Positions 11,801 to 40,884 are shown, counted from the stretch's first letter. The stretch is 45,400 nt of DNA from Promethearchaeota archaeon (GCA_029838195.1 JALGVJ010000041.1:1-45400), one strand, 5' to 3'. Numbers and translations are program-made. Notes: generated from the sequence alone by a model not told the origin.

Positions 11801-14739
11801 ACATTTCAGTCCCAGATGTGAAAGGACTGATTTTTAGTCGCAAAGGAACAAGCTTCAAATAGAAGATTGAAATTCATCTTCAATTTCTGAAATGTTGTTT
11901 GACGATATTGGTCGCAAAGGAACAAGCTTCAAATAGAAGATTGAAATCATTTAATGTCTCTCCTAGAGATTCATATGTTATTCCATGTCGCAAAGGAACA
12001 AGCTTCAAATAGAAGATTGAAATATATAAGGGGGCTCAACGTGACCTCCCCATAGAAGTTGAGTCGCAAAGGAACAAGCTTCAAATAGAAGATTGAAATG
12101 TTTTATAGAACAAGATTAAGATTTGGAGAAGGAGTAGTGTCGCAAAGGAACAAGCTTCAAATAGAAGATTGAAATGTGGACTCCCTTTCACGGGGAGTCC
12201 CCTTTATGCTCTGGTCGCAAAGGAACAAGCTTCAAATAGAAGATTGAAATTATTCTATCAATGTTGCGGGAACCCAATCCTGGCATTTTTGTCGCAAAGG
12301 AACAAGCTTCAAATAGAAGATTGAAATTGAATATCTTGATTAGTGCCCGGGAAAGACCATGTATCTGTCGCAAAGGAACAAGCTTCAAATAGAAGATTGA
12401 AATGACATTCAATCAACTAAATCTGGTCAAATAAAATGCGAGTCGCAAAGGAACAAGCTTCAAATAGAAGATTGAAATTACATCTCATGTTGAGTCCGAA
12501 GGACTCAGCAGCCAAGTCGCAAAGGAACAAGCTTCAAATAGAAGATTGAAATAAATTATTTGGAAACTCAAATCGATCATCTCTTTTCCTTGTCGCAAAG
12601 GAACAAGCTTCAAATAGAAGATTGAAATTAGGGATTCTGACCTCCTTTTTTAGCCCAAACTCCCTCGTCGCAAAGGAACAAGCTTCAAATAGAAGATTGA
12701 AATATTGCCTCAATGTCCTCAACGTAATTACTGATATCGCCGTCGCAAAGGAACAAGCTTCAAATAGAAGATTGAAATATGCAGCAGGTTTTTTTCCCTT
12801 ACCTTTAAATAATATTAATGTCGCAAAGGAACAAGCTTCAAATAGAAGATTGAAATTTTACAGCAAGTCACGGGTAAGGATATTCGCAGAATGGTCGCAA
12901 AGGAACAAGCTTCAAATAGAAGATTGAAATAATCAGTATCCATTCTTATTCAAAACCTCCCTAATTAAGGTCGCAAAGGAACAAGCTTCAAATAGAAGAT
13001 TGAAATTTTAATATAAATGGAAATAATAGAAATGGAATATTATAGTCGCAAAGGAACAAGCTTCAAATAGAAGATTGAAATAAATTTAGTAATTTTTTTG
13101 TCGTATTTCTTTCCATAAGAGTCGCAAAGGAACAAGCTTCAAATAGAAGATTGAAATTCAATCTCATAGAAATATTGGAATTTTCCAAAGAACATGTCGC
13201 AAAGGAACAAGCTTCAAATAGAAGATTGAAATTTAGGGTGTTAACCAAGAATGGGGCAAGACGAGAACGGTCGCAAAGGAACAAGCTTCAAATAGAAGAT
13301 TGAAATCATAGAGGAATTTTTTTTGCCTTTTTATATCTTTTGTCGCAAAGGAACAAGCTTCAAATAGAAGATTGAAATTGGAGGACGATTTTGACCCCGA
13401 CATGGAGGAATTTAGTCGCAAAGGAACAAGCTTCAAATAGAAGATTGAAATGATAAATGGCAATACCGCCTTTTCCCCACATTTCCGTGTCGCAAAGGAA
13501 CAAGCTTCAAATAGAAGATTGAAATTAGAAGATTGAAATCACCCCGACGGGGTTCATATGGTTCTTCTTCTCTTATAGTCGCAAAGGAACAAGCTTCAAA
13601 TAGAAGATTGAAATTTATTAAATTGTTCTACGTAAATCAGTTCATATACCTCGTCGCAAAGGAACAAGCTTCAAATAGAAGATTGAAATTATTAGTTAAA
13701 CGAAAAAGCCCCTTTCTCACAACGTATCGTCGCAAAGGAACAAGCTTCAAATAGAAGATTGAAATCTACATCAATAGCATTACCGAAAATCGTTTATAGG
13801 ACGTCGCAAAGGAACAAGCTTCAAATAGAAGATTGAAATACGATGAGGAGGCGCAGTCCGCACTGGAGGACACGAGCCGTCGCAAAGGAACAAGCTTCAA
13901 ATAGAAGATTGAAATTAATTAATAATAAACATAGAAGAATGGTGTATGCATATGTCGCAAAGGAACAAGCTTCAAATAGAAGATTGAAATTCATAATCGA
14001 TTATTTTTAACAATTTTTTTTCACTCCGTCGCAAAGGAACAAGCTTCAAATAGAAGATTGAAATTCATAATCGATTATTTTTAACAATTTTTTTTCACTC
14101 CGTCGCAAAGGAACAAGCTTCAAATAGAAGATTGAAACATGTATTTTTTGTTTGCTTTTATTACTCTCACCGCGTGTCGCAAAGGAACAAACTTCAAATA
14201 GAAGATTGAAACTGCTGTACACGGCATTGCTTAGCCCCTCCGTATCGGGGTCGCAAAGGAACAAGCTTCACATAGAAGATTGAAACGTTGATACGTTTTC
14301 CATCAATTCCTTGAGACAATATCCGTCGCAAAGGAACAAGCTTCAAATAGAAGATTGAAACCAGTTCCAGCACCAAACTTCATATATTGCTACATTCGTC
14401 GCAAAGGAACAAGCTTCAAATAGAAGATTGAAATATAATAGTCCTAAACCTATTCCTCCAGCCTTTTGATTTAAAGTCGCAAAGGAACAAGCTTCACATA
14501 GAAGATTGAAATCGATAATACGATTTTAGTGGTTTGTAGAGGCTATAATTCGTCGCAAAGGAACAAGCTTCAAATAGAAGATTGAAATCTCGGTAAGTAT
14601 TTCATATAATTCTTATCGCTCGATGGTCGCAAAGGAACAAGCTTCAAATAGAAGATTGAAATTCTTCAATGTCCTCAAAGAATGTGTTTACATCTTTATA
14701 TTGTCGCAAAGGAACGAGCTTCAAATAGAAGATTAAAAT
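5895..14739 (+). CRISPR. CRISPR array 1: 118 repeats / 117 spacers (manual count); 37-bp repeat GTCGCAAAGGAACAAGCTTCAAATAGAAGATTGAAA(C/T)
   Basis: Regular repeats with ~35-44 nt spacers. The ATTGAAA(C/T) 3' end, the left-side leader and the degenerate last repeat at 14703 fix the orientation. Confidence 0.99.
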
Positions 14740-16354: not shown

Positions 16355-19150
16355 ATGACTGCTGCGGAAAACTTTTCAGAATTAGTTCCGGAAGAATATC
16401 ATAATGATGTAATTTATGGAGCATTTTTACATGATTTAGGAAAATTTATTTGGAGAGCAGATAAAACTCAACCTAAAAAATACAAGGATTTGAAAGCAGA
16501 AGATTTTGGACGCAATGGGGCTCATGCGAAATGGTCTGCAAATTTTTTTTGCGAGCACCTTAAAGGAAAATTGTTTGAACCGACTAACGATGAAATTATT
16601 GAAAAATTGATACTTTTTCATCATAATCCCGAATCAGACAAATTACAAGTAAATGGCATTGATCTTTTAGATCTAAGAAAAATGGTAAAAATAATCCAGA
16701 TTGCTGATCATGCTTCTTCTGGAGAACGATTACGTAGAGAGACAGAAGAAAAGGAAGAAGAACACCTTGGTGATCCAAGAACAGAATTATTACGTTCAGT
16801 TTTTTGTGATATAGAATTAAAGCATGAATTTAAGAAAGATGGGTATTATTCTTTAAATTCACTAAGTGTAGGCGAAAATATTGATAATTTAGAAGATTCG
16901 CGGGTTTTATTCCCCAAACTAACTAAACAAGAAGCATTTGGGCGATATGCATCTGACACACAACAAGCATATAGAAGATTATATTCTCAATTCATAAAAG
17001 AACTTGAAGAAATAATTAACAATAAAGGAAAAATAACTTTTACCACGCTCTATTTTCTTGCGTTGAAATATTTATTGAATGTCCCATCTGCGACATTTAT
17101 TGATATTCCTGATATATCCCTTTTTGATCACATGAAATCAACAGCAGCTATTGCGTCATGTCTTTTTCAAGATTTAATTATAAAAGCAGGTGGAAATATT
17201 AAAAATATCAAAATGGAAGACCTAACAAATCCGAATGAAAAGCGATATTTACTAATAATGGGAAATATCTCAGGAATTCAAAATTTTATTTATTCAATCT
17301 CTTCAAAAGGAGCAGCAAAAGCACTCAAGGGGCGTTCATTTTTTGTAGAAATAATGGGTAATATCATTTCAAAATTTATTCTTGATCAATTTAACCTTCC
17401 CACGTGTTGTGAAATTTTTTGTGATGGAGGAAATTTTTATTTACTTGCTCCAGCTTCATGTAAAGGGGAATTAGAAAAAACCATAATCCTTATACAAAAC
17501 TATCTTTATAATTTATTCAAGGGAGAATTATTTGTAGATATTGATTGGATCGCTTTTAATAGACATAATTTCCTAATTTCTCCTGAAGAAGAGGGTCAAA
17601 TTGAATTTAAAGAACTTTGGAGTCAAATTAATGCTAAAGTAGGGGCTCTAAAATTTAAAAGATTTAATAAGATTTTATCTCAATCAAATGGATATGATTT
17701 AATATTTAAACCGATAGGTAGAGGAGGAGAGAAGGGGGGGATTTGCAGTATTTGTAAGGAAGAAAAAGAATTATCCGAATTAGATGAGGAAGAAAAATGT
17801 AATTTTTGTCAAGATTTAGAGCAAATCACCCGTAAGATTTCAAGATTAAAATATATTGCGTTAATTAATTTAAAGTCCGTTGAGAATAAAGGATTTAAGA
17901 TCAAAAATGTTAAAGATTTTACCTTACTTTTTAATTACGATATAGATTTGTTAAGGGAAAATGAAATATCCACATTCTTAGCTCAAATAGAAAATAAAAG
18001 AAACAATATTAATCAAGTTTATATCTATTCCATAAATAATACTTCATTAGAAGGGGTATCTAATTCAGTATCCGCTATTTCCACTAATGGTCTGAAATTT
18101 AATTTAGGGTTTGAATTCGTTGGAAATATAATTCCCATGAATGAGAAGAGGAAGGGGGCCATAAAAAGTTTTGATGATATTGCTGAGGACCCGATCACCC
18201 TTGGTACTGATAAAATTGGAATAATTCGAATGGATCTCGATAATCTGGGATTAATATTTTCAAAAGGACTTAAAGTTAATTCATTATCTCGCTTATCAAC
18301 CTTAAGTTTGCGATTAAAATTATTTTTTAAATACTGGATGATTGAAATTTGTAAAGGAAACATAATAGAGGAGGATTTAATTAATCCCGAATATTACAAA
18401 AAAATCAATGAAATCCACGTTAATCAATACGATTGTATTGAGACTTTTAAAAAACGCATTACTAATAATTTTTATCTGCTTTATTCAAGTGGAGATGACC
18501 TATTTCTCATCGGTCATTGGAATGATATTATATTAATTTCAGAAATCATTCAACAAGTGTTCTCCAGATATACCCTACAAAATCCAAATCTAACGATCTC
18601 TGGTGGTGTACTTGTTATTGATTCTAAATTTCCATTATATCAAGCAGCAGATTTAGCTCGTACAGCGGAAGAAAAATCAAAAGCTATTGAAAATAAAAAT
18701 TCCATAACTGTTTTAGGTACTACATATTCTTGGGATGAGTTTAGAGAATTAAGCCTAATAAAAGAAGATTTATTTGAATATTACAAAAATCAAGGCTTAA
18801 GTAAAGCATATATTCACCGATTATTAAGATTTAATGAATTATATAAAAAAGTTCATGATTTTGCCCTTAAATGTCTCAAGTCAAATACTCCCGTATTAAT
18901 TCAAAATAAGAATAAAATTAATCTCTATTATAATGTTGATGATGATCCGGAAAAAACAGCTCATGAAGCTGCTTTTTATAGTGGATGGTATTGGAGATTT
19001 GCGTATTATAATGCAAAAATGAAAAAAAATAAAAAAGCATTACAGTCATATCTTGAACAATTAGAACAAAAAATTGTTCAAGAGAGGAAAATTAAAGATT
19101 TATATTTACCTGCTCGATGGGCAGAATTATTATTAAAAGAAAAAAAATAA
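16355..19150 (+). CDS. cas10: Type III-A Cas10/Csm1
   Basis: HD domain (LHDLGK, ADHASS), DISLFDH, SGIQNFIY, KGRSF, Zn finger CSIC..CNFC, MDLDNLG; cyclase motif reads SSGDD. Confidence 0.97.
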   Translation: MTAAENFSELVPEEYHNDVIYGAFLHDLGKFIWRADKTQPKKYKDLKAEDFGRNGAHAKWSANFFCEHLKGKLFEPTNDEIIEKLILFHHNPESDKLQVNGIDLLDLRKMVKIIQIADHASSGERLRRETEEKEEEHLGDPRTELLRSVFCDIELKHEFKKDGYYSLNSLSVGENIDNLEDSRVLFPKLTKQEAFGRYASDTQQAYRRLYSQFIKELEEIINNKGKITFTTLYFLALKYLLNVPSATFIDIPDISLFDHMKSTAAIASCLFQDLIIKAGGNIKNIKMEDLTNPNEKRYLLIMGNISGIQNFIYSISSKGAAKALKGRSFFVEIMGNIISKFILDQFNLPTCCEIFCDGGNFYLLAPASCKGELEKTIILIQNYLYNLFKGELFVDIDWIAFNRHNFLISPEEEGQIEFKELWSQINAKVGALKFKRFNKILSQSNGYDLIFKPIGRGGEKGGICSICKEEKELSELDEEEKCNFCQDLEQITRKISRLKYIALINLKSVENKGFKIKNVKDFTLLFNYDIDLLRENEISTFLAQIENKRNNINQVYIYSINNTSLEGVSNSVSAISTNGLKFNLGFEFVGNIIPMNEKRKGAIKSFDDIAEDPITLGTDKIGIIRMDLDNLGLIFSKGLKVNSLSRLSTLSLRLKLFFKYWMIEICKGNIIEEDLINPEYYKKINEIHVNQYDCIETFKKRITNNFYLLYSSGDDLFLIGHWNDIILISEIIQQVFSRYTLQNPNLTISGGVLVIDSKFPLYQAADLARTAEEKSKAIENKNSITVLGTTYSWDEFRELSLIKEDLFEYYKNQGLSKAYIHRLLRFNELYKKVHDFALKCLKSNTPVLIQNKNKINLYYNVDDDPEKTAHEAAFYSGWYWRFAYYNAKMKKNKKALQSYLEQLEQKIVQERKIKDLYLPARWAELLLKEKK

Positions 19151-19172
19151 AAAATAAATAAAATGGTGAAAA

Positions 19173-19562
19173 ATGCCAAGAACAGAATATATAATACATA
19201 AAAAAGTAAAGGCCAAACCAAATGATTTCCTAAGTGGCAATGGAAAATTAATCGTAGATGTTTCAATGGACATTGCTAAACAAACTAGTGGCAGATATGG
19301 GGTTACTTCAACTCAAATACGTAGGATTTTTGGAGATCTTAAGCGAAGGCAATACAAAGATTTTAATCTTAATAGAATTCAATTAATTCGTCCAAAATTA
19401 GCTTATACATTTGCTCGTCATGGTACAAAACAAGGTATGGATGTTCTTTTAGGAACTATAGATTTTCTATTAGAAAAAGTAAAAAATAGAGAACATTTTG
19501 ATAATGTCATTAATTTTTTTGAAGCAATTTTAGCATATCATAAAAAATTTGGAGGTAAATAA
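19173..19562 (+). CDS. csm2: Csm2 small subunit
   Basis: TSTQIRRIF, PKLAY, FFEAILAYHKKFGGK. Confidence 0.95.
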   Translation: MPRTEYIIHKKVKAKPNDFLSGNGKLIVDVSMDIAKQTSGRYGVTSTQIRRIFGDLKRRQYKDFNLNRIQLIRPKLAYTFARHGTKQGMDVLLGTIDFLLEKVKNREHFDNVINFFEAILAYHKKFGGK

Positions 19563-19563
19563 A

Positions 19564-20370
19564 ATGACAAAACTTCATTTAAAAGCAAAAATGCAAATTA
19601 TTGGAAAGATACGATTAATAACAGGGCTTAGCATTGGAGGCTCTGGTGGAGGTCTTGAAATAGGGGGTGTTGATAATCCAATAATTCGAAATCCTATAAA
19701 TAATGAACCATACATACCGGGTAGTTCTTTGAAAGGTAAGTTTCGCTCCTTATTAGAAAAACATTTAGGAAAAGAACTGAATAAAGAAGTAATAACGGGG
19801 AAAAATCTAATCCGAATTCACGCGTGTAAAAATGATGGTGATTATAATAATTGTCCCGTATGTCTTTTATTTGGAAGTGCTGAAAAGGAGATTAACAAAC
19901 CAACAAGATTAATTGTAAGGGATTGCCAGTTGATTGATGGGGCTGAATATACTAAAAAGGATTTGGAAGAGAAAGGAGATTTACCATTCTCTGAAATTAA
20001 AACTGAAACGGTCATTGATCGAATTACAGCGCAGGCAATGCCTCGAGAATTAGAACGAGTTCCAGCAGGAGCGGAATTTAATTTAGATTTAATCTATGAT
20101 CTTTATGATGCTAAAGATGTTGAATTTATCGGAGAGGTGTTTAAATGCATGAAACTTTTAGAAGACGATTATTTAGGAGGATCGGGTTCAAGAGGATCAG
20201 GACAAATACAGTTCACCGATTTGAAAATTAATATCAAGGAAGAGGAATATTATAATTCCGGTAAATATAAAGATATCTATGAAAATATAAATAAAGATGC
20301 TAAAACCGTTGAAGAAATTATCCCTAATATTAAAGAGATTCAAGAAAAACTAGTGCCTTTAATTCAATGA
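19564..20370 (+). CDS. csm3: Csm3 (Cas7 group RAMP)
   Basis: IGGVDNP (catalytic Asp), PYIPGSSLKGK, YLGGSGSRGSG; ATG 19564 follows a GGAGGT RBS. Confidence 0.96.
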   Translation: MTKLHLKAKMQIIGKIRLITGLSIGGSGGGLEIGGVDNPIIRNPINNEPYIPGSSLKGKFRSLLEKHLGKELNKEVITGKNLIRIHACKNDGDYNNCPVCLLFGSAEKEINKPTRLIVRDCQLIDGAEYTKKDLEEKGDLPFSEIKTETVIDRITAQAMPRELERVPAGAEFNLDLIYDLYDAKDVEFIGEVFKCMKLLEDDYLGGSGSRGSGQIQFTDLKINIKEEEYYNSGKYKDIYENINKDAKTVEEIIPNIKEIQEKLVPLIQ

Positions 20371-20397
20371 AATAAAAAGATAGAGAGGTTCTTGAAG

Positions 20398-21465
20398 ATG
20401 GTGCTACATCAACTATTAAAGTTAAGACCTAAAACGGCATTTCACATTGGAACTCTAATGGATTTAGAAAATACAGATATAACCATTCATTCAGATACTA
20501 TCTTTAGCGCATTATGCAATATTTCCGGAATATACTTTAATAAGGATGAATATGATAGATTTATTCAACCTTTCATCGAAGGAAATCCTCCATTTCTCCT
20601 AAGTTCGGCTTTTCCATACTATGAGGATAATGAAAATACAATCTTTTTTTTTCCAAAACCATTAATCTTTAAGGATTTCGTTGGTAATGATCCAAAATAT
20701 GTAAAAACCTATAAAAAAATAATATATATTTCGGAAAAATTATTTGATGCCTATCTCACGGGAGATGATGAATTTTTAGAATCAAATTTTAAAGATAAAA
20801 ATAACAATATTATTGAAAATAATTTTATCCAAGGTTTTAATATCTGGATATCCAGCGAAGAAAGAGAATTAATTCCCGAAATTAACGAGTTTTGGAAAAT
20901 AACAAGATTACCGAGAGTTGTAATTGATCGACCAACTAATTTAACAGGAATTTACCATTATTCACGGGTTTTTTTTCACGAAAATGTTGGTTTATTCCTA
21001 TTAATTAATATAATTGATAAAAAAAATGATTCGGCCATTATAAACGACTTATTTTTAAAATTTCGTTATTTAGGTGATACGGGGCTTGGTGGTGAAAGAA
21101 GTATTGGAAATGGATTTTTTGAATTAGATTTTGATGAAAAAGACAAATTATTTTCAATTGAAATTCCTGAACATTCAGAAAATACTGATTTTGGCTTAAC
21201 TCTGTCACTTTATATCCCTACTGAAAATGAGATCAAGCATAGAGTATTAGACAACAACTCGTTTTATCAATTGACAAGGCGAACTGGATGGATATCACAA
21301 AAAACTTACTTTCGAAAAGCTATCAACTTGATAATTGAAGGAAGTGTTTTCAAAAAATTAAATGGATCTATAATGGGAAAAATGGTTGATCTAACTCCAG
21401 AAATTCTGTCCCGAGAAGATCCAACTTTTAAATGCCATCGATATGGCTATGCTTATCTATTATAA
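20398..21465 (+). CDS. csm4: Csm4 (Cas5 group RAMP)
   Basis: IHSDTIFSAL, LSSAFPY, GLGGERSIGNGFF, EGSVF, YGYA. Confidence 0.95.
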   Translation: MVLHQLLKLRPKTAFHIGTLMDLENTDITIHSDTIFSALCNISGIYFNKDEYDRFIQPFIEGNPPFLLSSAFPYYEDNENTIFFFPKPLIFKDFVGNDPKYVKTYKKIIYISEKLFDAYLTGDDEFLESNFKDKNNNIIENNFIQGFNIWISSEERELIPEINEFWKITRLPRVVIDRPTNLTGIYHYSRVFFHENVGLFLLINIIDKKNDSAIINDLFLKFRYLGDTGLGGERSIGNGFFELDFDEKDKLFSIEIPEHSENTDFGLTLSLYIPTENEIKHRVLDNNSFYQLTRRTGWISQKTYFRKAINLIIEGSVFKKLNGSIMGKMVDLTPEILSREDPTFKCHRYGYAYLL

Positions 21466-21481
21466 TTATACATGGAGTTGA

Positions 21482-22792
21482 ATGTTAATGGAAAAAGATT
21501 TAAGAGAAATACATACACTTGAATATGAAATAATAACACCGCTTCATATTGGAAATGGAGAAAAAATCCCAAAAACAGAACTTGCCTTTTTTCCAAATGA
21601 AGGCTTGATTCGAAAAGTAGATTTTGAAAAATTCTTTGCTAATCAACCTCCTCAAAAAATGGGAGAACTTTTAAAATTCATTAAAAGCGCTCAAAATGAT
21701 TATTTCAACGACATTCTTAAATTCGAACATTTAAATTTAAATAATACGCCAAGCGAATATGATTTACAATTTCTATTCCCTTATTCAAAAAATGACCTCT
21801 TGAAACTTAGAGAGATTTCTACGTTTATTAAGAATCCTTTCTTCAAACCTTTTATTCCTGGTTCTTCCATGAAAGGATGGCTTAGAACAGCAATCTTATA
21901 CTATTATTTAACGAAAATCAAAGAAACTAAAGAGAATCTAGAAGAATTCAACCAAGAATTAGATCATTTACCCCGTGGAGGAAGATCGTTGTATGAAAAG
22001 AAAAAAAATATGAGAAAAATTTTAGAAGATAAAATTTTTGGAGCAGACCCCCGCGAGAATATTTTCAGATTTATCATTATAACGGATACCACTCCAATTA
22101 ATCCTCAAGATTTGTTATTAGGATTAATTAATATATATCACCCCACAAAAAGGAGAAATGAAATGCTATTTGAGTCGCTCGGCTTTCCCATTTTCATTGA
22201 ATTGTTAAAAGAGGGAGCTAGAGCATCTAATAGGATTATTTTTGATAGAAGTTTAGACAAGTTTAAAGAAAGGTACCTGAGTTCCAATTCAATATCTTCA
22301 AAAATCAGAGAATTCATTTTAGGAGATTTAATTGAACGAGAAGGAGAAGAAAAAATTCGAAAAATCTGCCAGATTAATAATTTCTTTTCAAAAAACATAA
22401 TTGAATATAATTATAATTATTTGAATAAATTAAATAATGAAATATCTAGTCCTTACCTCGAAAATCTCATGCAATTTTATGAAAATCGCCTCCGAGAGAT
22501 ATTCAAAGAAATAACCTCGTCAAATAATTCATTTTTAATGAGATTAGGTTTTGGAACTGAATGGACTTCAAAAACTATCGGGCATCTATTAATTGATTAT
22601 TTTCTCAATAAAAGACAGCCAACTATGGATTTCAATGTGTTTTTCGACCGCCTTAATAGACTCCAATTATTTAAAGGACAAACCATGCATAAGCATTTTA
22701 AAATGATCCCTATATCCAGAGCATATGTAGTTAATAATTTAAACATTCCCCAATATCCTTTAGGATGGGTAAAAGTAAACATCAATACTTAA
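21482..22792 (+). CDS. csm5: Csm5 RAMP
   Basis: TPLHIGNG, PFIPGSSMKGWLRTA, RLGFG, PLGWV. Confidence 0.95.
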   Translation: MLMEKDLREIHTLEYEIITPLHIGNGEKIPKTELAFFPNEGLIRKVDFEKFFANQPPQKMGELLKFIKSAQNDYFNDILKFEHLNLNNTPSEYDLQFLFPYSKNDLLKLREISTFIKNPFFKPFIPGSSMKGWLRTAILYYYLTKIKETKENLEEFNQELDHLPRGGRSLYEKKKNMRKILEDKIFGADPRENIFRFIIITDTTPINPQDLLLGLINIYHPTKRRNEMLFESLGFPIFIELLKEGARASNRIIFDRSLDKFKERYLSSNSISSKIREFILGDLIEREGEEKIRKICQINNFFSKNIIEYNYNYLNKLNNEISSPYLENLMQFYENRLREIFKEITSSNNSFLMRLGFGTEWTSKTIGHLLIDYFLNKRQPTMDFNVFFDRLNRLQLFKGQTMHKHFKMIPISRAYVVNNLNIPQYPLGWVKVNINT

Positions 22793-22859
22793 ATTACGTT
22801 AGAAATTTAAAAAAAATGAAATTTTTCAATCAATATCAATTAATTTTTTTCCAAAATTC

Positions 22860-24323
22860 ATGTTTCGGACAACTAATAAAATATATGAGAGTAAAGATAT
22901 TATTTTTGATTTAATCTTTAAATTTGGTTCTTTTGATCCCAATGAAAGGGAAAGATTATTACTGAATATCTCTAAAAATAATGAATTTTCGGGTTATATA
23001 GCTAGAGCATTATCAGATAATTTCTTAGATATTTCTATTGAAGTAAGACATACATTAATCTTTAATTTAATAAATTTTGAGAGAGCTATTCCCGAGATTT
23101 TAAAAATTCTGAGAAAATATTATGCCAAATTACCAAAAGAAATTTTTTATTATATAATAATTAATTTAGCAAAATATGAGGATGATCCTTCTGTTGAGGT
23201 TGCTAGATTTATATGGGATAAATTAGAAGATATTAATATCAATATTAGAAATGAATTAATATTAGAATTAGCATCCCATGAAGATTCTTCCATTGAAGTT
23301 CTTAAAATGATTTATGAAAAATTTGAACTTTTCTCTGATGAAGATATAGAAAAAATTCTATTAAAAATTACTGAATTTGAAGAATCTTCCCTTTTTCTTA
23401 TCGGATTGTTAAAAAATTCTGATTTTTTTAGTAGAATTCCCTATCAATTAATTAATAATATTTTAAAAAAGATTGTTGAATATGATAAAGTGAAAGAAAA
23501 ATTAAGTGAAATTATTCTTGTATATTTTGAACAAATCGATTTTAATTTAAATGAAGAATTATTAATAAAAATTTCAAATGAAGATCAAGCTGTAGAACAT
23601 ATTCTAGAAATCCTAAAAGTAAGGTCTCAATTATTCGATATTACTTTTCTTGAAAATGTTTTTAAAAATATAATTAAGACTTTGAGTAATTCAAAAGTAC
23701 AGAATTCTTTTGATGTACTAGCAGATTATTTATCAAATAAATTTGAAGAAATTCCATCTAAAATAAGAAATAATTTATTATTGGAGCTCTCTGAACATAA
23801 AGAAGTTGGATATATAATAGCAGATATATTATATAATTATTATGAAAAAATTCCTGAAAATATAAGGCAAAAAATTATTATAAATCTCCCATTTGATGAA
23901 AAAATTAATAATATACTTAAAGAAATATACGAAATAAATTTCTTAGAAATACAATTAGATAAATATTTAGAAGAAATTAGAAATTATATTTCAATTGATA
24001 TTCAAAAAGATTTATTTCTAAGTTCTGAAGAAACTAATTTTTCTGGAATACTTAGTTCAGTAAGGAAATTTATTGAAAAATTAATAAAAAATATTGCATC
24101 CGAAAAAATAAAAGATTTTAATAGAATTACAAATTACAAAATTATTAAGAGACTACGTGAAATTAATGTTATTTCAGAAAATCAGGAAAAAAATTTACTA
24201 TTTTTAAATGGTTATGGAAATATTGGATCACATAATACTCCAATTTCTTTATCTTTTAGGGAGAGAATCATGTTAGTATTAGCTTTAAGTCAAGTAATTG
24301 ATGAAATTTTATTCACGGATTAA
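22860..24323 (+). CDS. HEAT/ARM-like repeat protein with a C-terminal DUF4145/HEPN-like domain
   Basis: About ten ~33-aa helical repeats (e.g. FEEIPSKIRNNLLLELS, YEKIPENIRQKIIINL); C-terminus VRKFIEKLI...LREINVIS...GYGNIGSH. Confidence 0.65.
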   Translation: MFRTTNKIYESKDIIFDLIFKFGSFDPNERERLLLNISKNNEFSGYIARALSDNFLDISIEVRHTLIFNLINFERAIPEILKILRKYYAKLPKEIFYYIIINLAKYEDDPSVEVARFIWDKLEDININIRNELILELASHEDSSIEVLKMIYEKFELFSDEDIEKILLKITEFEESSLFLIGLLKNSDFFSRIPYQLINNILKKIVEYDKVKEKLSEIILVYFEQIDFNLNEELLIKISNEDQAVEHILEILKVRSQLFDITFLENVFKNIIKTLSNSKVQNSFDVLADYLSNKFEEIPSKIRNNLLLELSEHKEVGYIIADILYNYYEKIPENIRQKIIINLPFDEKINNILKEIYEINFLEIQLDKYLEEIRNYISIDIQKDLFLSSEETNFSGILSSVRKFIEKLIKNIASEKIKDFNRITNYKIIKRLREINVISENQEKNLLFLNGYGNIGSHNTPISLSFRERIMLVLALSQVIDEILFTD

Positions 24324-24390
24324 ACAATTTTTAGTCATTCGAAGTATTTTCAAATTTAAATATATGAAATAATTTAATAATTTATCTCAT

Positions 24391-25173
24391 ATGATTCGAA
24401 TAAAATTAGAACTCAAACCAGAAGAAAAAAATGGAGCGTTTCAATATCCGCCTCTTGGGTATATTTTTCGAGCAATTTTAATGAAGTGGTTGACAGAGTT
24501 AAAACCTGATCTCGTTCAAGAATTACATTCTAGCAATAAAATTCGCCCTTATTCCATTCAAATAATGTGTCGTAGAGAAAAATTAATTTTTTATATCAAT
24601 ATTTTTAATCCTTCTTTAAGCTCTTTACTCATTAATGATTTAATTCAAAAAAAGCAAAAATCTTTTAAAATAATGAAACAAAAATATCTCGTGCGGAAAG
24701 CGTTATTTGAGGATATTTCAATAAATTCTTATCTTAGAAAAGGGCGTCCTGTAAGCAGTTTTAAAATTGATTTTTTGAAGCCAACTTTTTTTAATACTAC
24801 TCGAGGAGATTATTCAATAAAGCTCCCCATTCCTGAGATCATGTTCAGCAATCTCGTGAATCTGTGGAATGAATTTTCAGATGAGAAAGATAAAATCGAA
24901 AAAAATAATTTTCTACAATGGGTTAATCGATATATGTATCCAAGTAGTTTTAAAATTAAAACTCAAGCAAGAGAAATGGGAGAAAATTTACCTGCTTCAG
25001 GGGTTATTGGTTGGATGATCTATTTCTTAACTGAAAATCATCTCATTTATAATAAATATATTGATGGATTATGCAAATTAGGAGAATTAACAAATGTAGG
25101 AGGAGGTCGTACTGCGGGATTTGGCTTGATAAAATATACTCCTTTAGAATTTTTTGAATCTTCTACTAATTAA
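24391..25173 (+). CDS. cas6: Cas6 endoribonuclease (copy 1)
   Basis: LH...RPYSI, F.KPTFF, LPIP...NL..LWN, C-terminal GGGRTAGFG loop. Confidence 0.93.
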   Translation: MIRIKLELKPEEKNGAFQYPPLGYIFRAILMKWLTELKPDLVQELHSSNKIRPYSIQIMCRREKLIFYINIFNPSLSSLLINDLIQKKQKSFKIMKQKYLVRKALFEDISINSYLRKGRPVSSFKIDFLKPTFFNTTRGDYSIKLPIPEIMFSNLVNLWNEFSDEKDKIEKNNFLQWVNRYMYPSSFKIKTQAREMGENLPASGVIGWMIYFLTENHLIYNKYIDGLCKLGELTNVGGGRTAGFGLIKYTPLEFFESSTN

Positions 25174-25274: not shown

Positions 25275-26735
25275 TTATTTTTCAGGAGTTTTTAACCATT
25301 TCTCTATAGTCTTTAATTTACTTTCATCATATCTTATTAAAATATTACCATCTACCCCTTTTTTTACAAAAATGAAATCATTGAGAAATCCTGAATGAGC
25401 GAAAAAATTACGTTTAATGTCAGAACTTGTTCTTGATTCTTCAAGATCAGGTTTTAACTGTTCCTCCTTTGTAGAAATTCCTTGATACTGAAGAATATTT
25501 AAATCTTTTAAACATATTTCTTCATAATCTTGTAAACTTTTTGATTTAATTTCTATAACTCTTAAATCTCTTTCGAGAAAGCGCTTGTTTACACCCATAT
25601 CAAGCCGAGAATACAAGTCTGTAAATATTTTATTTATATTTTCTATGGAAGGTTCGCTGGTGTTAACATTTTCATCGTAAAATTGTTTCAGGGATTCAAA
25701 TAATCCCAAGGTAAACAAGCAATTTATCACTTCTTTTTTTTTCACGTTCATTCTTGTTAGGGTGAGGCGCTGGATATGCTCTCTTTCGTGGTTTATCACA
25801 TCCTTAGAAATGAGTAAATTACCGTTAATAAAATGCGGTAGTCTTTTAATCTCTTCTAATTGTTTTACCAAGCAATCCATGGATTCCTCGGAAAAAGAAA
25901 TAAGCTCTCTTGTAAATAATGCTAATGGGACATTATTAGTAATTGCCTTAAATGCTATAAGCGTTGGAGCAATAATTTTCGATTTCGTACTTGGTAGAAG
26001 CCGTGGTGCACTTTTATAAATTTCAGGTGGATATGCTCTTCCACCTCCTTTAATAAATGCAGATGGGATTGATGTCGTTGAATAAGGAATAGAAAAAAAT
26101 GCTTTCGATTTTTCTTCAACAAGAGTAATTGGATAAGGGCCCTTGATATTTCTCATTACTGGAGGTACTATAGCAATCTGGACCTTTAATTGAGAATCAC
26201 CGGAGATAATCGCTTTTAAATTATTGTATACTAAAAGATGCCTAGCAGCTTCTAATAGCGCTTTCGCGTAGATATTAAATCCGGTGGAAATATCAAATAT
26301 TAAATCTCCCTTCATGTCAAGTAAATCAGCGACCACTTGAATGATGATATTATCCAAACTGTTTTCAAAATTAATTTGAAAATTTGTATTTTTATTATTA
26401 ATATTATAAAGTCCCAATGATTGAATAGATTTAATTTCATGAGGTATTTTTAAATCCAAATTGAGTTTCTTTTTAACATAATCATCCTTAAAAGCGTGAG
26501 GTGGCTTTAATTTTTGAATTATTTCCTCTTCATTTTCATATAAAAAAGCAACTACGCTCTCAGGAATATAATAAATTATTTTAACGCTTGTATCGGGAAC
26601 CATTACCTTGCTAAGCGCAATTGAACTTAATACTGTTTTAATGGTTTCGCCATTATGGGCAAATTCAACATCATCATAATTTAGATTACCCAATACCTGG
26701 ACAATTGTCATGATTTTTTGATTCTCCATGAGCAT
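25275..26735 (-). CDS. csx1: Csx1 CARF-HEPN ribonuclease (TM1812-like)
   Basis: CARF DISTGFN motif, NVPLAL, HEPN RNFFAHSGF. Confidence 0.92.
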   Translation of the reverse strand: MLMENQKIMTIVQVLGNLNYDDVEFAHNGETIKTVLSSIALSKVMVPDTSVKIIYYIPESVVAFLYENEEEIIQKLKPPHAFKDDYVKKKLNLDLKIPHEIKSIQSLGLYNINNKNTNFQINFENSLDNIIIQVVADLLDMKGDLIFDISTGFNIYAKALLEAARHLLVYNNLKAIISGDSQLKVQIAIVPPVMRNIKGPYPITLVEEKSKAFFSIPYSTTSIPSAFIKGGGRAYPPEIYKSAPRLLPSTKSKIIAPTLIAFKAITNNVPLALFTRELISFSEESMDCLVKQLEEIKRLPHFINGNLLISKDVINHEREHIQRLTLTRMNVKKKEVINCLFTLGLFESLKQFYDENVNTSEPSIENINKIFTDLYSRLDMGVNKRFLERDLRVIEIKSKSLQDYEEICLKDLNILQYQGISTKEEQLKPDLEESRTSSDIKRNFFAHSGFLNDFIFVKKGVDGNILIRYDESKLKTIEKWLKTPEK

Positions 26736-26940: not shown

Positions 26941-27450
26941 TTAAGATTTTTTAAAGCTCCTCAGCAGTTCAAATAATACCTTCCCCCTGGAAGTGATTTC
27001 ATGGGTATCCCACCCTCTTTTTCTTAATAACCCTTGTTTCACCATCTGCTGAATCGAATAATGATCAGAAAATATTTCATTTCTCTGAATTTTAAATGAC
27101 ATGTCCAAGAGAGCATTAAATTCGATGGAATGCAAGATAGGAGTCTCCACTAACACCGCATGAAGTCCCATCGTCCGTGGATGTAAAATTCGCTTGCTCT
27201 CCTCGGAGGATAGTTTTTCTAAATTTAATGGATTATCTGCCCCTAAAAAATTCTTGATATTGCCTTCGCTCTCGATTTCTGAACTAGTAATTAAATGACA
27301 TGCCATGTCCACCGGAAACATGTTCGGTAACGTATTAAAAATCCCTGATATAGTATTCCTTTCTCCCGCAACGTTCCCATAAATAGCCTTCCCCTTACTA
27401 TTTTCTTTTAATCTCATCTCCTCTTTCATGAACGCTACAAGCGTTTTCAT
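26941..27450 (-). CDS. Small protein, possible minimal CARF-like N-terminus plus winged-helix C-terminus
   Basis: MKTLVAF first strand, D...LITS.E; C-terminal QQMVKQGLL...EITSRGK wHTH signature; GGAGGT upstream. Confidence 0.45.
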   Translation of the reverse strand: MKTLVAFMKEEMRLKENSKGKAIYGNVAGERNTISGIFNTLPNMFPVDMACHLITSSEIESEGNIKNFLGADNPLNLEKLSSEESKRILHPRTMGLHAVLVETPILHSIEFNALLDMSFKIQRNEIFSDHYSIQQMVKQGLLRKRGWDTHEITSRGKVLFELLRSFKKS

Positions 27451-27927: not shown

Positions 27928-29592
27928 ATGTTGCTTAATGCTTTAGTAAATATCGGAAGAGTAATTGAAGGGGAGACTGAATTAGAGGATTTTGCTAAAA
28001 AATATGATCCTGAAATTGTTAAATTTATAAACATGAGGTATAGTTCTCCTCCAAAAATGGATCGAATTGTTAAAATAAACATAGCTCCAGGAATTTTAGA
28101 TGCTTTTGATACTGTGAAATTAGGAATTGAAAGAATTGACCCTGAATTTTGGAAAAATATTATAGATAAATTTAAAAAAAAACTTGATAAAAAGAAAAGA
28201 GATGAAAATAAAAAGGAAGTAATTAATGAAATCATTAAAAAATTAAATCTTGATATCAATGACTTTCAAAGATACATTTCTTTAGAAGTGATTGAATATA
28301 ATAAAGAACATCCCTATCTAATGTTAAGAGGAGAAAAAAAAGGGAATAATGTTTTTTTATCGCCGACGATGTTTACTAAAATTTCTTCAAAAAAAATTGA
28401 ATCTTTCCCCTTATGGAAGATAAATTTAGATATATCGTTAATTTTACCTGAAAAAGAAGATGAGGAAATAATTTTTATTAAAAATTTTTTTCAAAATTTA
28501 CCAAGTTTATCAGAAACTTCAAAAATTAAAGAAATAGATGCCGATCTAATTTTTAAATTTATTATTTCAGAGATTTTTTTAAGAGTATTAAATTCTGACA
28601 TCGAAAGAGAGAATTTAAAAACAGGTTATTATTTTTTTCCCATCTGTTTTAATGGGAAGTGGCCTTATAATATAGAGATATTTAAAGAGTATTATAAAAA
28701 AAAGACATTATCTGATGAAAATGCCCCAATAGGAATATGTTCGGGATGCGGAGAAAGAAAAAATGTAGAGAAGGGCCTAACAAAAGAATTAGGTTTTTTT
28801 AGCATCGATCAAAATAGTTTTACGTATTCTTTTTTCAAGGATTCGAACTACCAATTATGTAATGAATGTAAATACTTAGTCGAAGTTGGATTTAATCATG
28901 TAAAAAAAGATTTAAGAATTTTTTTAGGCGCACGTGGGAGGGGGAAGAGAAAGAATCCATATGAATTATACGTTATTCCGATTGCGGATGACCTTCAAAC
29001 ATTATCTAAAATTTTGAAAGAATTAAAATTTACTAAGGATTATAAGGAAAAGATTATTAAGGCAGGAGAGTTGGCGCAAGAATCGAATAATCAAGAAGAG
29101 GAAGAGGGAGAAGAAGTTTCCGAACAAATTTTACCCGCAAAAGAAGATTTACATAATTTTTTTATTAATTATTATTTTAGTAGGGGAGAAAAGAAAGAGA
29201 AAGATAGATTTGAATTATTATTAATTACATATTATCATCCAGATGGGCAATCAAGTGATTTTCATAATATCATATCTATCGATCTTTTAGATCATGAAAA
29301 AATAATCAAGTTATCCGATGTGCTTTCCGAATTAGAATTAAACGGGGAATTTATTTCTTTAAAAGATATCTTTTTCCTATTTGGAATCCATAAATTTAAA
29401 ACATATATCAGTAAATATCTAAATTTAAAAAGAATTGATTTATCTACATTATGTCGAGACGCTTATTTAAATCTTAAACAAGAATTTTTTAAATTCATGT
29501 CCAATCCATCTAATCCGCCTAATTTTATTAGACTTAATTTATATAGACTGAATATTTATTTCAAATTAATAAATAAATTGAATTTAATATGA
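27928..29592 (+). CDS. cas8b: Type I-B Cas8b (Csh1/TM1802-like) lacking its C-terminal bundle
   Basis: MLLNALVNIG start, GICSGCG and YQLCNEC Zn finger, FFSIDQ, YVIP; first gene of the cas7-cas5-cas3 operon. Confidence 0.82.
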   Translation: MLLNALVNIGRVIEGETELEDFAKKYDPEIVKFINMRYSSPPKMDRIVKINIAPGILDAFDTVKLGIERIDPEFWKNIIDKFKKKLDKKKRDENKKEVINEIIKKLNLDINDFQRYISLEVIEYNKEHPYLMLRGEKKGNNVFLSPTMFTKISSKKIESFPLWKINLDISLILPEKEDEEIIFIKNFFQNLPSLSETSKIKEIDADLIFKFIISEIFLRVLNSDIERENLKTGYYFFPICFNGKWPYNIEIFKEYYKKKTLSDENAPIGICSGCGERKNVEKGLTKELGFFSIDQNSFTYSFFKDSNYQLCNECKYLVEVGFNHVKKDLRIFLGARGRGKRKNPYELYVIPIADDLQTLSKILKELKFTKDYKEKIIKAGELAQESNNQEEEEGEEVSEQILPAKEDLHNFFINYYFSRGEKKEKDRFELLLITYYHPDGQSSDFHNIISIDLLDHEKIIKLSDVLSELELNGEFISLKDIFFLFGIHKFKTYISKYLNLKRIDLSTLCRDAYLNLKQEFFKFMSNPSNPPNFIRLNLYRLNIYFKLINKLNLI

Positions 29593-30974
29593 ATTTGAAT
29601 AAAACTAATAATATCATAGAATTCGAGATAAATCAAGAAGATATTAAGGATCCCTATTTCACATTAGGAGAAATTGCTCGTGAGCTTAATTATTATTTTT
29701 TTATTAGCAATAATAGAGAGGAAAAATATAATATTATAATAAAAAACATTCCTGTTTTTATTAATTGGATTATAAAATCAAGGACCAATTTTGAATATTT
29801 ATTAAAATTATATCAGTTCTTAGATAAAAGATTTAAAGTTTATTTACCACAAAAAAAAATAAGAAATATAAAGAACATTTTAAATAATTATAATAGAAAC
29901 CGTATAGATTTAGATAATGACAAGATCCTTTATTATAAAAAGATCCTTAAGCTATATCAAAGAATAAACAAGAAGTTCAAAAAATTAAAGGTTTTTTTTG
30001 ATAAAAAAGAAAATTATAGGGAGATTAAATATTCTTCTTTAGCTGATTTATATTTTTTACAAGGTTTTGATAATTTTTCCTTAAAAGGAGAAGATACCTT
30101 TTTAAATAAATGGATTGAAGGAACCATTTTAAATGATAATATTTCATATAAAATCGCATTTATTTTGGGAAGATATTATTATAGAGTAGCAGAAAATGAA
30201 ATCAAATTAGTTAAAAATCTTGGCTTATCAAAAAAAATAGTTTCTTGGCTGAAGAAAATTCAAATTGAGAATTTTATAACATTATTCCGAGAGATTACCA
30301 TATCTTATTTTCATTTATTACGGAAAAGGCAAGATTTAAATAATCCTAAAGAAAGTGAAAAATCTAATCCACTTAAATTAGATCATTTGATACGATATAG
30401 AAGAATAATTGAAAAACTCTTAGATGTTTTCTATTTCGAAAGCGAAACAACAATTAACAATAATAATATTAATAATAAAATGATACAATTTTGTTTCATG
30501 AGCGGGTTTTTAGTGAGGAATTCTCCCATAAAAAAATCCATGAGTACTTATAAGAAGCTTAATTTCCCTCAAAAAAATGAATATACTAAATTATTATATG
30601 ATTTAGGTAAAATGGTAAGAATGATTAGTGAATATGAATTAGAAGAATTCCAATCTCATTCTTTTAAAAATATTATTAAAAAATTTCAAGATTTAAATCA
30701 TTCGAATATTTTATACATTTTATTACATGTTTCTAAAATCTTAATAAGAAATTGGTTAAAAAATGTCCAAAATATTCTTGGTAAAGGAACAAATGATGAT
30801 TTAATAAAAATAAAATATATTTATACAAAAAGGTATCATGACATTATTTATAGATTTTTACACTTAGATCAAAATAAAAAGTTTGATAAATATGCTGGAC
30901 CAATCGTTTTCATGATTGGTTTTAGTTCAATTCCAATTAAAAGTAACCAAAATTCAAAGAAGGTGAAAAAATAA
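29589..30974 (+). CDS. Stand-alone protein of three tandem Cas11b-like (Cas8b C-terminal) domains
   Basis: Three units each running from (F/Y)xLG to FxxGF; ATGA overlap with cas8b; stop abuts the cas7 GTG. Confidence 0.65.
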   Translation: MNLNKTNNIIEFEINQEDIKDPYFTLGEIARELNYYFFISNNREEKYNIIIKNIPVFINWIIKSRTNFEYLLKLYQFLDKRFKVYLPQKKIRNIKNILNNYNRNRIDLDNDKILYYKKILKLYQRINKKFKKLKVFFDKKENYREIKYSSLADLYFLQGFDNFSLKGEDTFLNKWIEGTILNDNISYKIAFILGRYYYRVAENEIKLVKNLGLSKKIVSWLKKIQIENFITLFREITISYFHLLRKRQDLNNPKESEKSNPLKLDHLIRYRRIIEKLLDVFYFESETTINNNNINNKMIQFCFMSGFLVRNSPIKKSMSTYKKLNFPQKNEYTKLLYDLGKMVRMISEYELEEFQSHSFKNIIKKFQDLNHSNILYILLHVSKILIRNWLKNVQNILGKGTNDDLIKIKYIYTKRYHDIIYRFLHLDQNKKFDKYAGPIVFMIGFSSIPIKSNQNSKKVKK

Positions 30975-32819: not shown

Positions 32820-33734
32820 ATGGTGGAAGAAATAAACACGGATTATATTGGTATTATTTTTCGGGATGATACAAGTTATGTTATTTTTAATTTTATAGAT
32901 CTTTGGCATTATTTAGAGTCTATATTTGAAGAAAATAACATTATAATTGAGAAGAATGAATTTGAAAATTTAAAGAAAGAAATTGTCTCTAATATTGATT
33001 CAAGTATTAAATGTTATTACGAGAATAGAGAATTTTATATAGTAAAAGATATCCTTGAGATAAAAACAATAGCATTATATTATGATGAGGATATAAATCT
33101 AGAGGATTATGAAGATGATCTTAGTGATTTTAATTTTGATGATTATTTGTTAGAAGATAATGGCCCAATAATTATTGATTATATTACTTGTTTTAATGAT
33201 AATGTCTTATATATTTATTCGAAAAAAAATAAGTACCAACCAATTGATGATGATTATAATCACTTAATAATTAAATTACCTTCTATTATTTCTTCGGAAT
33301 TTCAAATCCAAAATTATTGCCACATTTTTTGTAAATTAAGTATTTTATTTGTAATTTTTGAATATCTCATGAAGGATAATATGACCACACATATATATCA
33401 ACGATTTAATTTTAAGGACATGAAAATTAATACGATTCTGAAGCGCTTGAAGGGTAGCGTACAAATAAATAAAATTAATGATATAAAAACCGAAAAATCT
33501 CTATATTTTTCGGAAGATTATTCTCAATCGGATGTTTTTATTAATAAGTTATTAGTAAAAATATATAATATTCGTAATAAAATTTTTCATCAAGCTTATC
33601 CTAAAAATTTTACTCGACCTTCTAATTTCTCATATAAAGAGATTATAAAAATGTTTGAGATATTATGTAAAAATTATAAAGCATTTTTTGATTTTTTAGA
33701 AAAATGTGAAATGAGAGAAAATATTACAAATTAA
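32820..33734 (+). CDS. Hypothetical protein with a C-terminal HEPN-like domain
   Basis: 304-aa ORF between cas5 and cas3; IFEY...IRNKIFH (RxxxxH); acidic central tract. Confidence 0.6.
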   Translation: MVEEINTDYIGIIFRDDTSYVIFNFIDLWHYLESIFEENNIIIEKNEFENLKKEIVSNIDSSIKCYYENREFYIVKDILEIKTIALYYDEDINLEDYEDDLSDFNFDDYLLEDNGPIIIDYITCFNDNVLYIYSKKNKYQPIDDDYNHLIIKLPSIISSEFQIQNYCHIFCKLSILFVIFEYLMKDNMTTHIYQRFNFKDMKINTILKRLKGSVQINKINDIKTEKSLYFSEDYSQSDVFINKLLVKIYNIRNKIFHQAYPKNFTRPSNFSYKEIIKMFEILCKNYKAFFDFLEKCEMRENITN

Positions 33735-38580: not shown

Positions 38581-39759
38581 TTACGTCCAATAGGGTGTTT
38601 TTAAGAAATTTATTGATTCCAGCCGATCTAAATTCATGTTGGTAAGCGCATGAGAAATTTTCTCAATTTCTCCATGTTCTAAATAAAGTTCTTTAGGATT
38701 GGATTCTAATATACTGGTAATAATTCCTTTAAAATCGGCATGGTCGCTTAAAGGCAGGTAAATATCAGCGGGATTTTCCTTTCGATATGACTCAAAAAGA
38801 ACTCTTCCTGAGGGTACAATGATAAGGGATTCGGGGGTAGCTAATTCATTATAAGGACTTTTATTTATTGCGTGAGGAGGAATGATGAGAACATGATTTC
38901 TCTCTTCTTTCAATTTTCTTTTACCATAGTGTTTATAAGGAGCCCAGTTTGGTAAGGCTCGGCCATTCTTTTCAAGGATTCTAGCGATTGCGGCTATGTC
39001 CCGATCTAAAATGATTTCTTCCTCACATTGGAGCATTTCATGAATGACTTGTGCTTTTCCAAAAATAGTACAGGGAATGATGATTAGTTTACCCAAATCC
39101 AAGTTTTCTTGAACGATTTTATTTAAAAATTTGCGCAGTTCGGCAACGGATGGAAACGAAATCGACGGATCACCGTAAGTGCATTCCGTAATTAAATAAT
39201 CACAAGGAATGGGATTAAAACACCTTATACAAACCACTTTCTCCGAAGAACAGCGTTTTTCTGTGATAAAATCTCCAGTATAAAGAATCTTTTCCTCAGC
39301 CTCAATCATTAAGCCTATAGAGCCCGGCGCATGTCCATTATCAAAAATTGTAAATTTCATGCCTTTATATTCCATAGATTGAGGAAGTTGAGGGGTTTTT
39401 CCCATTAACCATGCGTGCTCTGGAATGATCAATTGATTATTCGTTCTTAATTCTGCAATATCTTTTGAAATTTTCGTACAAATAAATTTAACATCGATTT
39501 TATTCATCCTGATTTTTTCAAGAATTTCCAGAGGTACCCGGGGAATGTGGTCCATGTGCGCATGGGAAATGAAAATGAGCTCGGCTTTGGGAATCCAACA
39601 ATCTAAAGCAATGAAAGTGTTCTTAACTTTTATGAATAAACCATTATTTTTGGTATTTCCTATAATGATATTCGCATTCTTATTTTTAATTCTTTTTTCT
39701 TGCCATTTTTTTATTTCGAAAACATGGTTTTGAAACATTTTCAAGTACCTCTTGGTCAA
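38581..39759 (-). CDS. Metallo-beta-lactamase/beta-CASP nuclease
   Basis: SHAHMDH, GHAPGS, YTGDF, TECTYG, SDHADF, HG motifs all present; 34 nt downstream of cas4. Confidence 0.88.
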   Translation of the reverse strand: MTKRYLKMFQNHVFEIKKWQEKRIKNKNANIIIGNTKNNGLFIKVKNTFIALDCWIPKAELIFISHAHMDHIPRVPLEILEKIRMNKIDVKFICTKISKDIAELRTNNQLIIPEHAWLMGKTPQLPQSMEYKGMKFTIFDNGHAPGSIGLMIEAEEKILYTGDFITEKRCSSEKVVCIRCFNPIPCDYLITECTYGDPSISFPSVAELRKFLNKIVQENLDLGKLIIIPCTIFGKAQVIHEMLQCEEEIILDRDIAAIARILEKNGRALPNWAPYKHYGKRKLKEERNHVLIIPPHAINKSPYNELATPESLIIVPSGRVLFESYRKENPADIYLPLSDHADFKGIITSILESNPKELYLEHGEIEKISHALTNMNLDRLESINFLKTPYWT

Positions 39760-39793
39760 GATTGTATTTCCTTTCCCTCTTACGAGTTTTTTA

Positions 39794-40459: not shown

Positions 40460-40503
40460 TCATGGACTCCCTCCAATTTTTTCTATATTTTAACATGAAC
40501 TCT

Positions 40504-40797: not shown

Positions 40798-40884
40798 GTA
40801 CTCACTTCCGTTTTTATTTTTTTTATTTTACTTTCTTGACCTTTTTTTCACGTTTTAATTACAATTCTATTTAGATTTAATTGA

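Follow-up and report, generated by a model that had tools for sequence, protein, structure and literature searches.

An intact, foreign-looking gene was found in the csm6 position of a type III-A CRISPR operon from an Asgard archaeon of the Loki group. It encodes a 487-aa protein (P0001) with an acidic N-terminal alpha-solenoid and a C-terminal domain predicted to be of the DUF4145 type of HEPN domains, in which asparagine stands at the position of the catalytic arginine. The reading adopted here, tentatively and with slightly less than even confidence, is that the csm6 slot is filled by a lineage-specific accessory protein that couples a sensor to HEPN and works independently of cOA, its RNase being weakened or dead in this copy.

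The window, meaning the whole stretch of DNA analysed, is a complete contig of 45.4 kb (G000:C48) from a genome of 4.5 Mb with 33.5% GC. The closest relatives of its Cas proteins were found in annotated Promethearchaeota and Lokiarchaeota MAGs. The following features were located in it, with positions counted from its first nucleotide:

About 5895-14739: CRISPR array with 37-nt repeats
16355..22792, plus strand: cas10-csm2-csm3-csm4-csm5, the type III-A effector genes 5' of the target gene
16355-19150, plus strand: cas10 (Pfam and NCBIfam)
19173-19562, plus strand: csm2 (Pfam and NCBIfam)
19549-20370, plus strand: csm3 (Pfam and NCBIfam)
20392-21465, plus strand: csm4 (Pfam and NCBIfam)
21482-22792, plus strand: csm5 (TIGR01899, E 5e-31)
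22860-24323, plus strand: target ORF of 487 aa (P0001), read from an ATG start
22896..23945 (aa ~13-362), plus strand: acidic alpha-solenoid of about 10 two-helix repeats of 33-37 aa (AF2, unit HMM, homology)
23946..24041 (aa ~363-394), plus strand: helical linker from the solenoid to the HEPN core (helices in both models, at lower confidence)
24042..24320 (aa ~395-487), plus strand: predicted DUF4145-type HEPN core (PF13643, hhalign, AF2, fold searches)
24063..24065, plus strand: Arg402 codon in the first-helix R-x2-(I/L)-E motif (R402-K-F-I-E), aligned with the first-helix Arg of most DUF4145 domains
24207..24209, plus strand: Asn450 codon (AAT) at the catalytic-Arg position of R-x2-G-N-x3-H (A5 alignment, DNA reading)
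24219..24233, plus strand: Asn454 to His458 (N-I-G-S-H), the portion of the HEPN motif that is kept (A5 alignment)
24391-25173, plus strand: cas6, directly 3' of the target gene (PF10040, E 1e-13)
25275-26735, minus strand: csx1, CARF-HEPN, divergent (PF09455, PF22230, TIGR01897)
26941-27450, minus strand: small CARF-like ORF
Beyond 27928: type I module
38581-43509, minus strand: probable adaptation genes
45135-45397, that is, beyond 38581: second CRISPR array

The gene pattern csm5-X-cas6 is the classical csm6 slot, and the target gene occupies the X position. As the original prediction had stated, the ORF between csm5 and cas6 is real and very AT-rich. Both neighbours flank it on the same strand, each across a gap of 67 bp (22793-22859 and 24324-24390), and all 487 codons are open. 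Its GC content is 21.4%, compared with 29-33% in the csm genes and 33.5% genome-wide, a value within the bottom 0.08% of the genome's 1464-nt windows.

No paralogue of the gene was found in a search of its own genome; together with the extreme GC content, this fits a recent foreign insertion. Inspection for mobile-element signs revealed no flanking direct or inverted repeats and no target-site duplication. A sigma-70 and terminator scan, which is not applicable to an archaeon, remained at background level. In each 67-bp gap, an oligo-T run precedes a TATA-like box (ATTTAAAAAA; TTTAAATATA, about 27-36 nt 5' of the cas6 ATG). The target gene and cas6 may each have their own archaeal promoter, a weak reading made by eye in very AT-rich DNA.

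Cas10 retains its HD motif together with a cyclase-type SGDD motif, and Csx1 its RNFFAH motif; csx1 is the predicted canonical cOA-dependent RNase of the locus. With these motifs retained, a canonical cOA-to-Csx1 route is present even without the target gene. The cyclase motif of Cas10 (18488-18499, aa 712-715) reads SGDD and not GGDD, and the same variant was observed in the related L019 operon.

The solenoid displayed a regular two-helix pattern with pLDDT of 80-90 in a single-sequence AF2 model, and a 33-aa unit HMM, derived from regular members of the family, matched several of its repeat units. Among 1.84 billion representatives, an exhaustive HMMER search identified 103 relatives at E < 1e-3, nearly all of them aligned to aa 1-390 of the target. 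The approximately ten helical repeats proposed originally were thus recovered from the helix pattern, the unit HMM and the repeat family alike. The name HEAT given to them held as a generic label for a solenoid, but no Pfam HEAT match was obtained in the protein, and Foldseek returned for the solenoid generic ARM/HEAT/PUF matches alone, at TM 0.2-0.3. Assignment to a specific repeat class, or to PUF-like RNA binding, was dropped in view of these low TM values and the acidity of the arm. The net charge of the solenoid is about -18, which would favour binding of protein over RNA.

A Pfam census of the 103 relatives placed the nSTAND3 NTPase domain (PF20720) in 49, with the repeats C-terminal in these proteins. 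The effector domains encountered included CHAT (3), Trypsin_2 (3), Peptidase_C25 (2), SIR2 (1) and TIR (1), and some repeats of family relatives scored as DUF7070. When aa 1-390 of the target were compared with the C-terminal repeats of nSTAND3 proteins, phmmer E values ranged from 3e-31 to 1e-15. Avs5 has nSTAND3 as its NTPase and requires its variable C-terminal repeats to sense phage (bioRxiv 10.1101/2025.07.08.663546). Judged by these alignments, the repeats of this family mostly form the predicted sensor arm at the C-terminus of archaeal nSTAND3 (Avs5-type) NTPases, and the sharing of repeats makes the solenoid homologous to an NLR-type sensor arm. Elsewhere in the phylum (400 genomes), the family was detected in two other genomes only: in G007, where the repeats are fused to a Schlafen AlbA_2 domain and adjoin transposase-like ORFs, and in G064, which has a repeat-family ORF of 993 aa.

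For the C-terminus, a DUF4145-like HEPN domain had been proposed, and the profile, model and fold comparisons all pointed the same way. PF13643 was borderline on the target, with 20.1 bits by hmmscan and 22.9 bits, or 23.2 "with neighbours", in the genome scan, against a cut-off of 23.1; on the relatives P0005 and P0093 it scored 39 and 33.9 bits, respectively, both above the cut-off. In hhalign, a profile of these three C-termini matched four bona fide DUF4145 domains of Asgard archaea with a probability of 93.4% (E 2.6e-7). AF2 modelling of the domain with a 24-row MSA gave a pLDDT of 82.4 and a pTM of 0.74, with the core at 86-98, and the model shows the all-alpha helical-bundle fold of HEPN domains.

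Searches with this model led to the same family. The ten best Foldseek matches were all HEPN toxins of HEPN-MNT systems (prob 0.99-1.0, E 0.015-0.06, TM ~0.5). VIA-align matched the Roquin HEPN domain (Z 10.2), 7ae2 (8.9) and 2hsb (8.6), and its list, ranging over Z 5.5-10.2, also contained HEPN toxins, AF_0298, the sacsin HEPN domain, MtlR/YggD, Csm6, Cas13 and HepS; Csm6 chains scored Z 5.6-7.6. The fold was called because the matches were almost exclusively HEPN, single Z values being middling for helical bundles. The profile of the A5 family (24 DUF4145-type rows), and not the target alone, matched PDB entry 9y9c, a "DUF4145 domain-containing protein", at E 2e-25. The number of chains (24) and the labels OA/OM suggest that this entry is the RAZR-Gp77 ring complex. 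On these profile and model matches, the C-terminal ~95 aa are predicted to form a DUF4145-type HEPN domain, of the same family as that of RAZR.

RAZR is the one DUF4145 RNase that has been characterised; in it, a zinc-finger sensor is joined to the HEPN RNase, and assembly around phage portal or Gp77 rings activates it (PMC13017515). Bona fide DUF4145 proteins were present in 22 of the 400 genomes of the phylum. At least two of them (L023 and L024), with ~200-250 aa, carry an N-terminal Cys-rich zinc ribbon followed by DUF4145, and from their sequences they apparently represent the RAZR architecture in Asgard archaea.

Several candidates were examined and set aside. A 508-aa protein with a DUF4145 match (G096:C110) has an unrelated N-terminus, and a HEPN-motif ORF of the target's own genome (G000:C79, 385-1557) showed no significant BLASTP similarity to P0001. 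The weak relative suggested in G020 proved to be a tRNA methyltransferase gene and was spurious. A weak PADLOC match of the target to "capH" (E 0.0026) was dismissed, as it had no passing stretch. A search of the ESM Atlas returned nothing above chance.

One full-length homologue of the target, P0005 (534 aa), was identified among ~15 billion proteins, and no closer orthologue was present in that collection. It aligns with P0001 end to end at 31% identity, and its motif Arg and His are intact. A word-index search of ~5.8 billion 90%-identity clusters, with the whole target and with its C-terminus, recovered the query itself alone. Genome-contig scans with A1 and with P0005 gave no match, and neither did viral-contig scans with P0005 and P0001; the latter collection therefore offers no sign of viral origin. 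This type of protein, a solenoid joined to a DUF4145 HEPN domain, is known from two sequences only, one of them catalytically compromised.

The link of P0005 to type III systems was approached through Csm5. According to its record, P0005 comes from a single 123,838-bp contig (sources NCBI and Logan), from a genome outside the phylum set (400 genomes) and the family set (135 genomes). The Csm5 homologue P0112, 54-55% identical to Csm5 of the window (P0109), is likewise assigned to a single contig of that length with the same sources. From this equality of size and sources, P0005 and the Csm5 P0112 appear to lie on one contig, which does not imply adjacency. In the Csm5 tree, the window and P0110, a Csm5 with 82% identity on a 16.8-kb contig, form a clade sister to P0111 and P0112 (support 88/95).

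A search for synteny had been suggested originally, and its outcome was mixed. In all four readable related Loki operons (G281:C82, L016, L018 and L019), whose Csm5 proteins are 46-49% identical to that of the window, csm5 is followed directly by cas6 and the target gene is absent. Relatives of either domain mostly have other architectures, while P0005 apparently shares its contig with a Csm5. The four operons without the insert belong to other subclades of the Csm5 tree. One subclade of Loki csm operons seems to have acquired the target gene, which does not belong to the conserved operon.

The slot itself has a parallel in the second type III-A locus of the genome (G000:C79), where a Csm6-like gene occupies the same csm5-X-cas6 position. 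This locus (L047; 3196-11946, minus strand) comprises cas10, csm2-5, a Csm6-like gene of 494 aa with a weak PF09670 match and a Cas6b-type cas6. Identity between the Csm5 of this locus and that of the window is only 30%.

Other arrangements were noted among the operons lacking the insert. In L015 (G281:C82, 4163-6418, minus strand), a 751-aa protein with SIR2_2 and TPR domains is encoded beside cas6. It combines an effector with a solenoid, as Avs5 does, but has no NTPase match. In L019 (JABUBN010001275.1, 1-7518), one strand carries csm5, reduced to its C-terminal two thirds, and cas6 broken into two ORFs. The other strand carries a 180-aa N-terminal fragment of csm5, csm4, csm3, csm2 and cas10 in two ORFs. 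This suggests a rearranged or degenerate operon, with either an inversion within csm5 or a misassembly.

The position inside the operon on the same strand, the parallel of the second III-A locus, the end-to-end alignment with P0005 and its apparent location on the contig of a sister-clade Csm5, and the restriction of the insert-less operons to subclades other than window+P0110 and P0111+P0112 all argue for a type III accessory. Its character as a sensor joined to a HEPN domain is supported by the 49 nSTAND3 proteins among the repeat relatives, by the DUF4145 HEPN evidence and by the mechanism of RAZR (PMC13017515). Against a type III accessory stand the four related operons running directly from csm5 to cas6, the extreme GC content and missing paralogues that fit a recent foreign insertion, and a P0005 link resting on equal contig size and sources. 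No orthologue above 31% was found despite the presence of a Csm5 as close as P0110. Three type III surveys also bear on this point (Shah 2018, PMC6546367; Hoikkala 2024, PMC11229360; the 2025 classification, PMC12669027): DUF4145 is not mentioned in them, no HEAT-type repeat protein is described there as a type III accessory, and none of the catalogues of type III accessories searched mentions a protein of this kind.

The same observations can be read differently, and the main alternative, rather unlikely but serious and set in the original prediction beside a cOA-independent ancillary effector or sensor, is that the gene encodes an unrelated single-gene innate defence protein. Its sensor solenoid and HEPN domain would then act in abortive infection of the RAZR or HepS kind, without a functional tie to Csm, the gene having landed in the operon through the clustering of defence genes. 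The domain relatives are indeed mostly non-CRISPR proteins (STAND NTPases, zinc-ribbon-DUF4145 proteins and the AlbA_2 fusion by transposase-like ORFs), the four related operons do without the gene, and its GC content is in the lowest 0.08% of the genome. Clustering of this type is shown by the SIR2-TPR gene beside cas6 in the sister operon G281:C82. Such an origin is harder to reconcile with a precise same-strand insertion between operon genes in the csm6 slot, with flanks that show neither mobile-element ends nor a target-site duplication, and with the only full-length homologue apparently sharing a contig with a sister-clade csm5.

Both halves of the C-terminal R..IE...GN..SH signature described originally were found, as R402-K-F-I-E and G453-N-I-G-S-H458. 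The Arg expected before GN had been reported as apparently replaced, and this was confirmed: Asn450, three positions before G453, is encoded by AAT. All rows of the A5 alignment have the Asn of GN, while the His and the Arg before it are each found in at least 90% of them; the target is the sole row with Asn in the Arg column. As AAT is two base changes away from any Arg codon, Asn450 is not explained by one base-call error.

Asn450 aligns with R146 of RAZR, and defence by RAZR is abolished by R146A or H154A (PMC13017515). DUF4145 belongs to the HEPN superfamily, and the motif is conserved in about 80% of its members, whereas about 20% of them, along with whole HEPN families, lack the canonical motif (PMC3710099). 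Loss of the Arg is therefore compatible with homology, but a canonical active site is excluded. With Asn450 at the place of the catalytic Arg, the RNase is probably dead or strongly weakened in the window copy, which weighs against an active effector.

This substitution raises a further, quite unlikely alternative, namely that the gene is a remnant, either decaying or neutralised. An effector with a formerly toxic HEPN domain would have been disarmed by the change from Arg to Asn, leaving little or no function, or a non-catalytic pseudo-enzyme that serves as an RNA- or protein-binding regulator. Disarming is consistent with the replacement of the very residue whose mutation abolishes RAZR defence (PMC13017515), with the extreme composition, and with fast divergence, as the target shares 31% identity with P0005 compared with 54-55% for the Csm5 pair P0109/P0112. 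A second RNase would also be dispensable beside an intact Csx1. Decay is at odds with the open frame of 487 codons, with the confidently predicted folds of both the solenoid and the HEPN core, and with the retention of Asn454 and His458. Members of DUF4145 (about 20%) and whole HEPN families also persist without the canonical motif (PMC3710099).

The absence of CARF and SAVED domains, another element of the original prediction, was upheld, with no match in Pfam, NCBIfam or PADLOC and with both AF2 models of the target all-helical and free of a Rossmann-like fold. A cOA-dependent effector in which a cryptic nucleotide sensor replaces CARF or SAVED would suit the csm6 slot and the SGDD cyclase-type motif kept in Cas10, but it is highly improbable given the lack of either domain in three libraries, the all-helical models and the homology of the solenoid to protein-sensing STAND arms.

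If the target is a sensor-HEPN accessory, its solenoid would bind a protein partner, which could be the Csm complex itself or a protein of viral origin. On binding, HEPN domains would pair to form a composite RNase site, without any sensing of cOA. Such pairing on binding would follow the logic shown for RAZR and HepS. P0005, which keeps both Arg and His, would be capable of forming a composite-site RNase. The window copy may act as a binder or regulator only, with the neighbouring Csx1 supplying the cOA-dependent RNase.

By its predicted domains, the target is distinct from Csm6/Csx1 (no CARF), from RAZR (no zinc finger) and from Avs (no NTPase). It shares with RAZR (PD-T7-4; ring-activated zinc-finger RNase) a C-terminal HEPN domain, predicted to be of the DUF4145 type, with the R-x2-G-N-x3-H region, a two-part layout of N-terminal sensor and C-terminal HEPN effector, and the lack of a nucleotide second messenger. 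The sensor of RAZR is a Cys4 zinc ribbon, in contrast to a ~360-aa solenoid in a protein with zero cysteines by composition. RAZR has R146 where the target has Asn, and the target is archaeal and embedded in a csm operon.

Csm6 and Csx1 resemble the target in the csm5-X-cas6 slot, as in the second III-A locus of the genome, and in the C-terminal HEPN fold. The target differs in having no CARF domain, a HEPN domain matched to the DUF4145 family and not to those of Csm6/Csx1, and no motif Arg, and its activation by cOA is not expected. With Avs5/nSTAND3 proteins it has in common the logic of effector plus sensor, and its solenoid is homologous to their C-terminal helical-repeat arm (49 nSTAND3 proteins). 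It lacks the NTPase domain (no PF20720 match), carries its effector at the C-terminus, unlike the N-terminal effector of Avs5, and has HEPN as effector instead of SIR2, protease or TIR.

TPR-CHAT (Csx29) of type III-E is likewise a solenoid-plus-effector protein without CARF that is encoded beside a type III effector. Its repeat family and effector are unrelated to those of the target, for which docking on Csm is hypothetical. In a more far-reaching proposal, regarded as decidedly doubtful, Asgard archaea would have a new class of type III-A ancillary proteins that work independently of cOA, represented by P0001 and P0005. The solenoid would dock on Cas10-Csm, as TPR-CHAT does on gRAMP, and binding of target RNA would license the DUF4145 HEPN domain. 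The copy without Arg would then have no catalytic role and would instead regulate the complex, or the handling of crRNA or target RNA.

Cyclic nucleotides, acting through CARF or SAVED domains, activate the known type III ancillary RNases. A HEPN protein in the csm6 slot with an NLR-type repeat arm as sensor would imply a different wiring of an RNase, either to type III or to direct sensing of viruses. With a new sensor module and a possible link to type III, it would also carry the DUF4145/RAZR effector family, characterised only recently, into Asgard archaea. P0005, with R...H intact, and the window copy with Asn constitute a natural experiment on whether such proteins are enzymes or binders. 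Should the gene be merely a hitch-hiking, disarmed defence gene, the case would be an ordinary defence-island insertion.

Other parts of the window also displayed unusual features. At the head of the type I module (27928-30974, plus strand), two large ORFs of 554 and 461 aa had no match in Pfam, NCBIfam or PADLOC. The second of them has a GC content of 21.7%, as extreme as that of the target, and both are probably divergent large-subunit-type genes. A 304-aa ORF between cas5 and cas3 of this module (32820-33734, plus strand) contains an RNKIFH motif and an acidic tract, and its GC content is 22%. It was rejected as a DUF4145-type relative, since the DUF4145-type C-terminal HMMs gave no match to it. 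In the long CRISPR array (5895-14739), the end of the repeat changes from ...ATTGAAAC to ...ATTGAAAT at about 11.7-12.3 kb, and the array at 45135-45397 consists of repeats of the ...GAAAT form with one more change.
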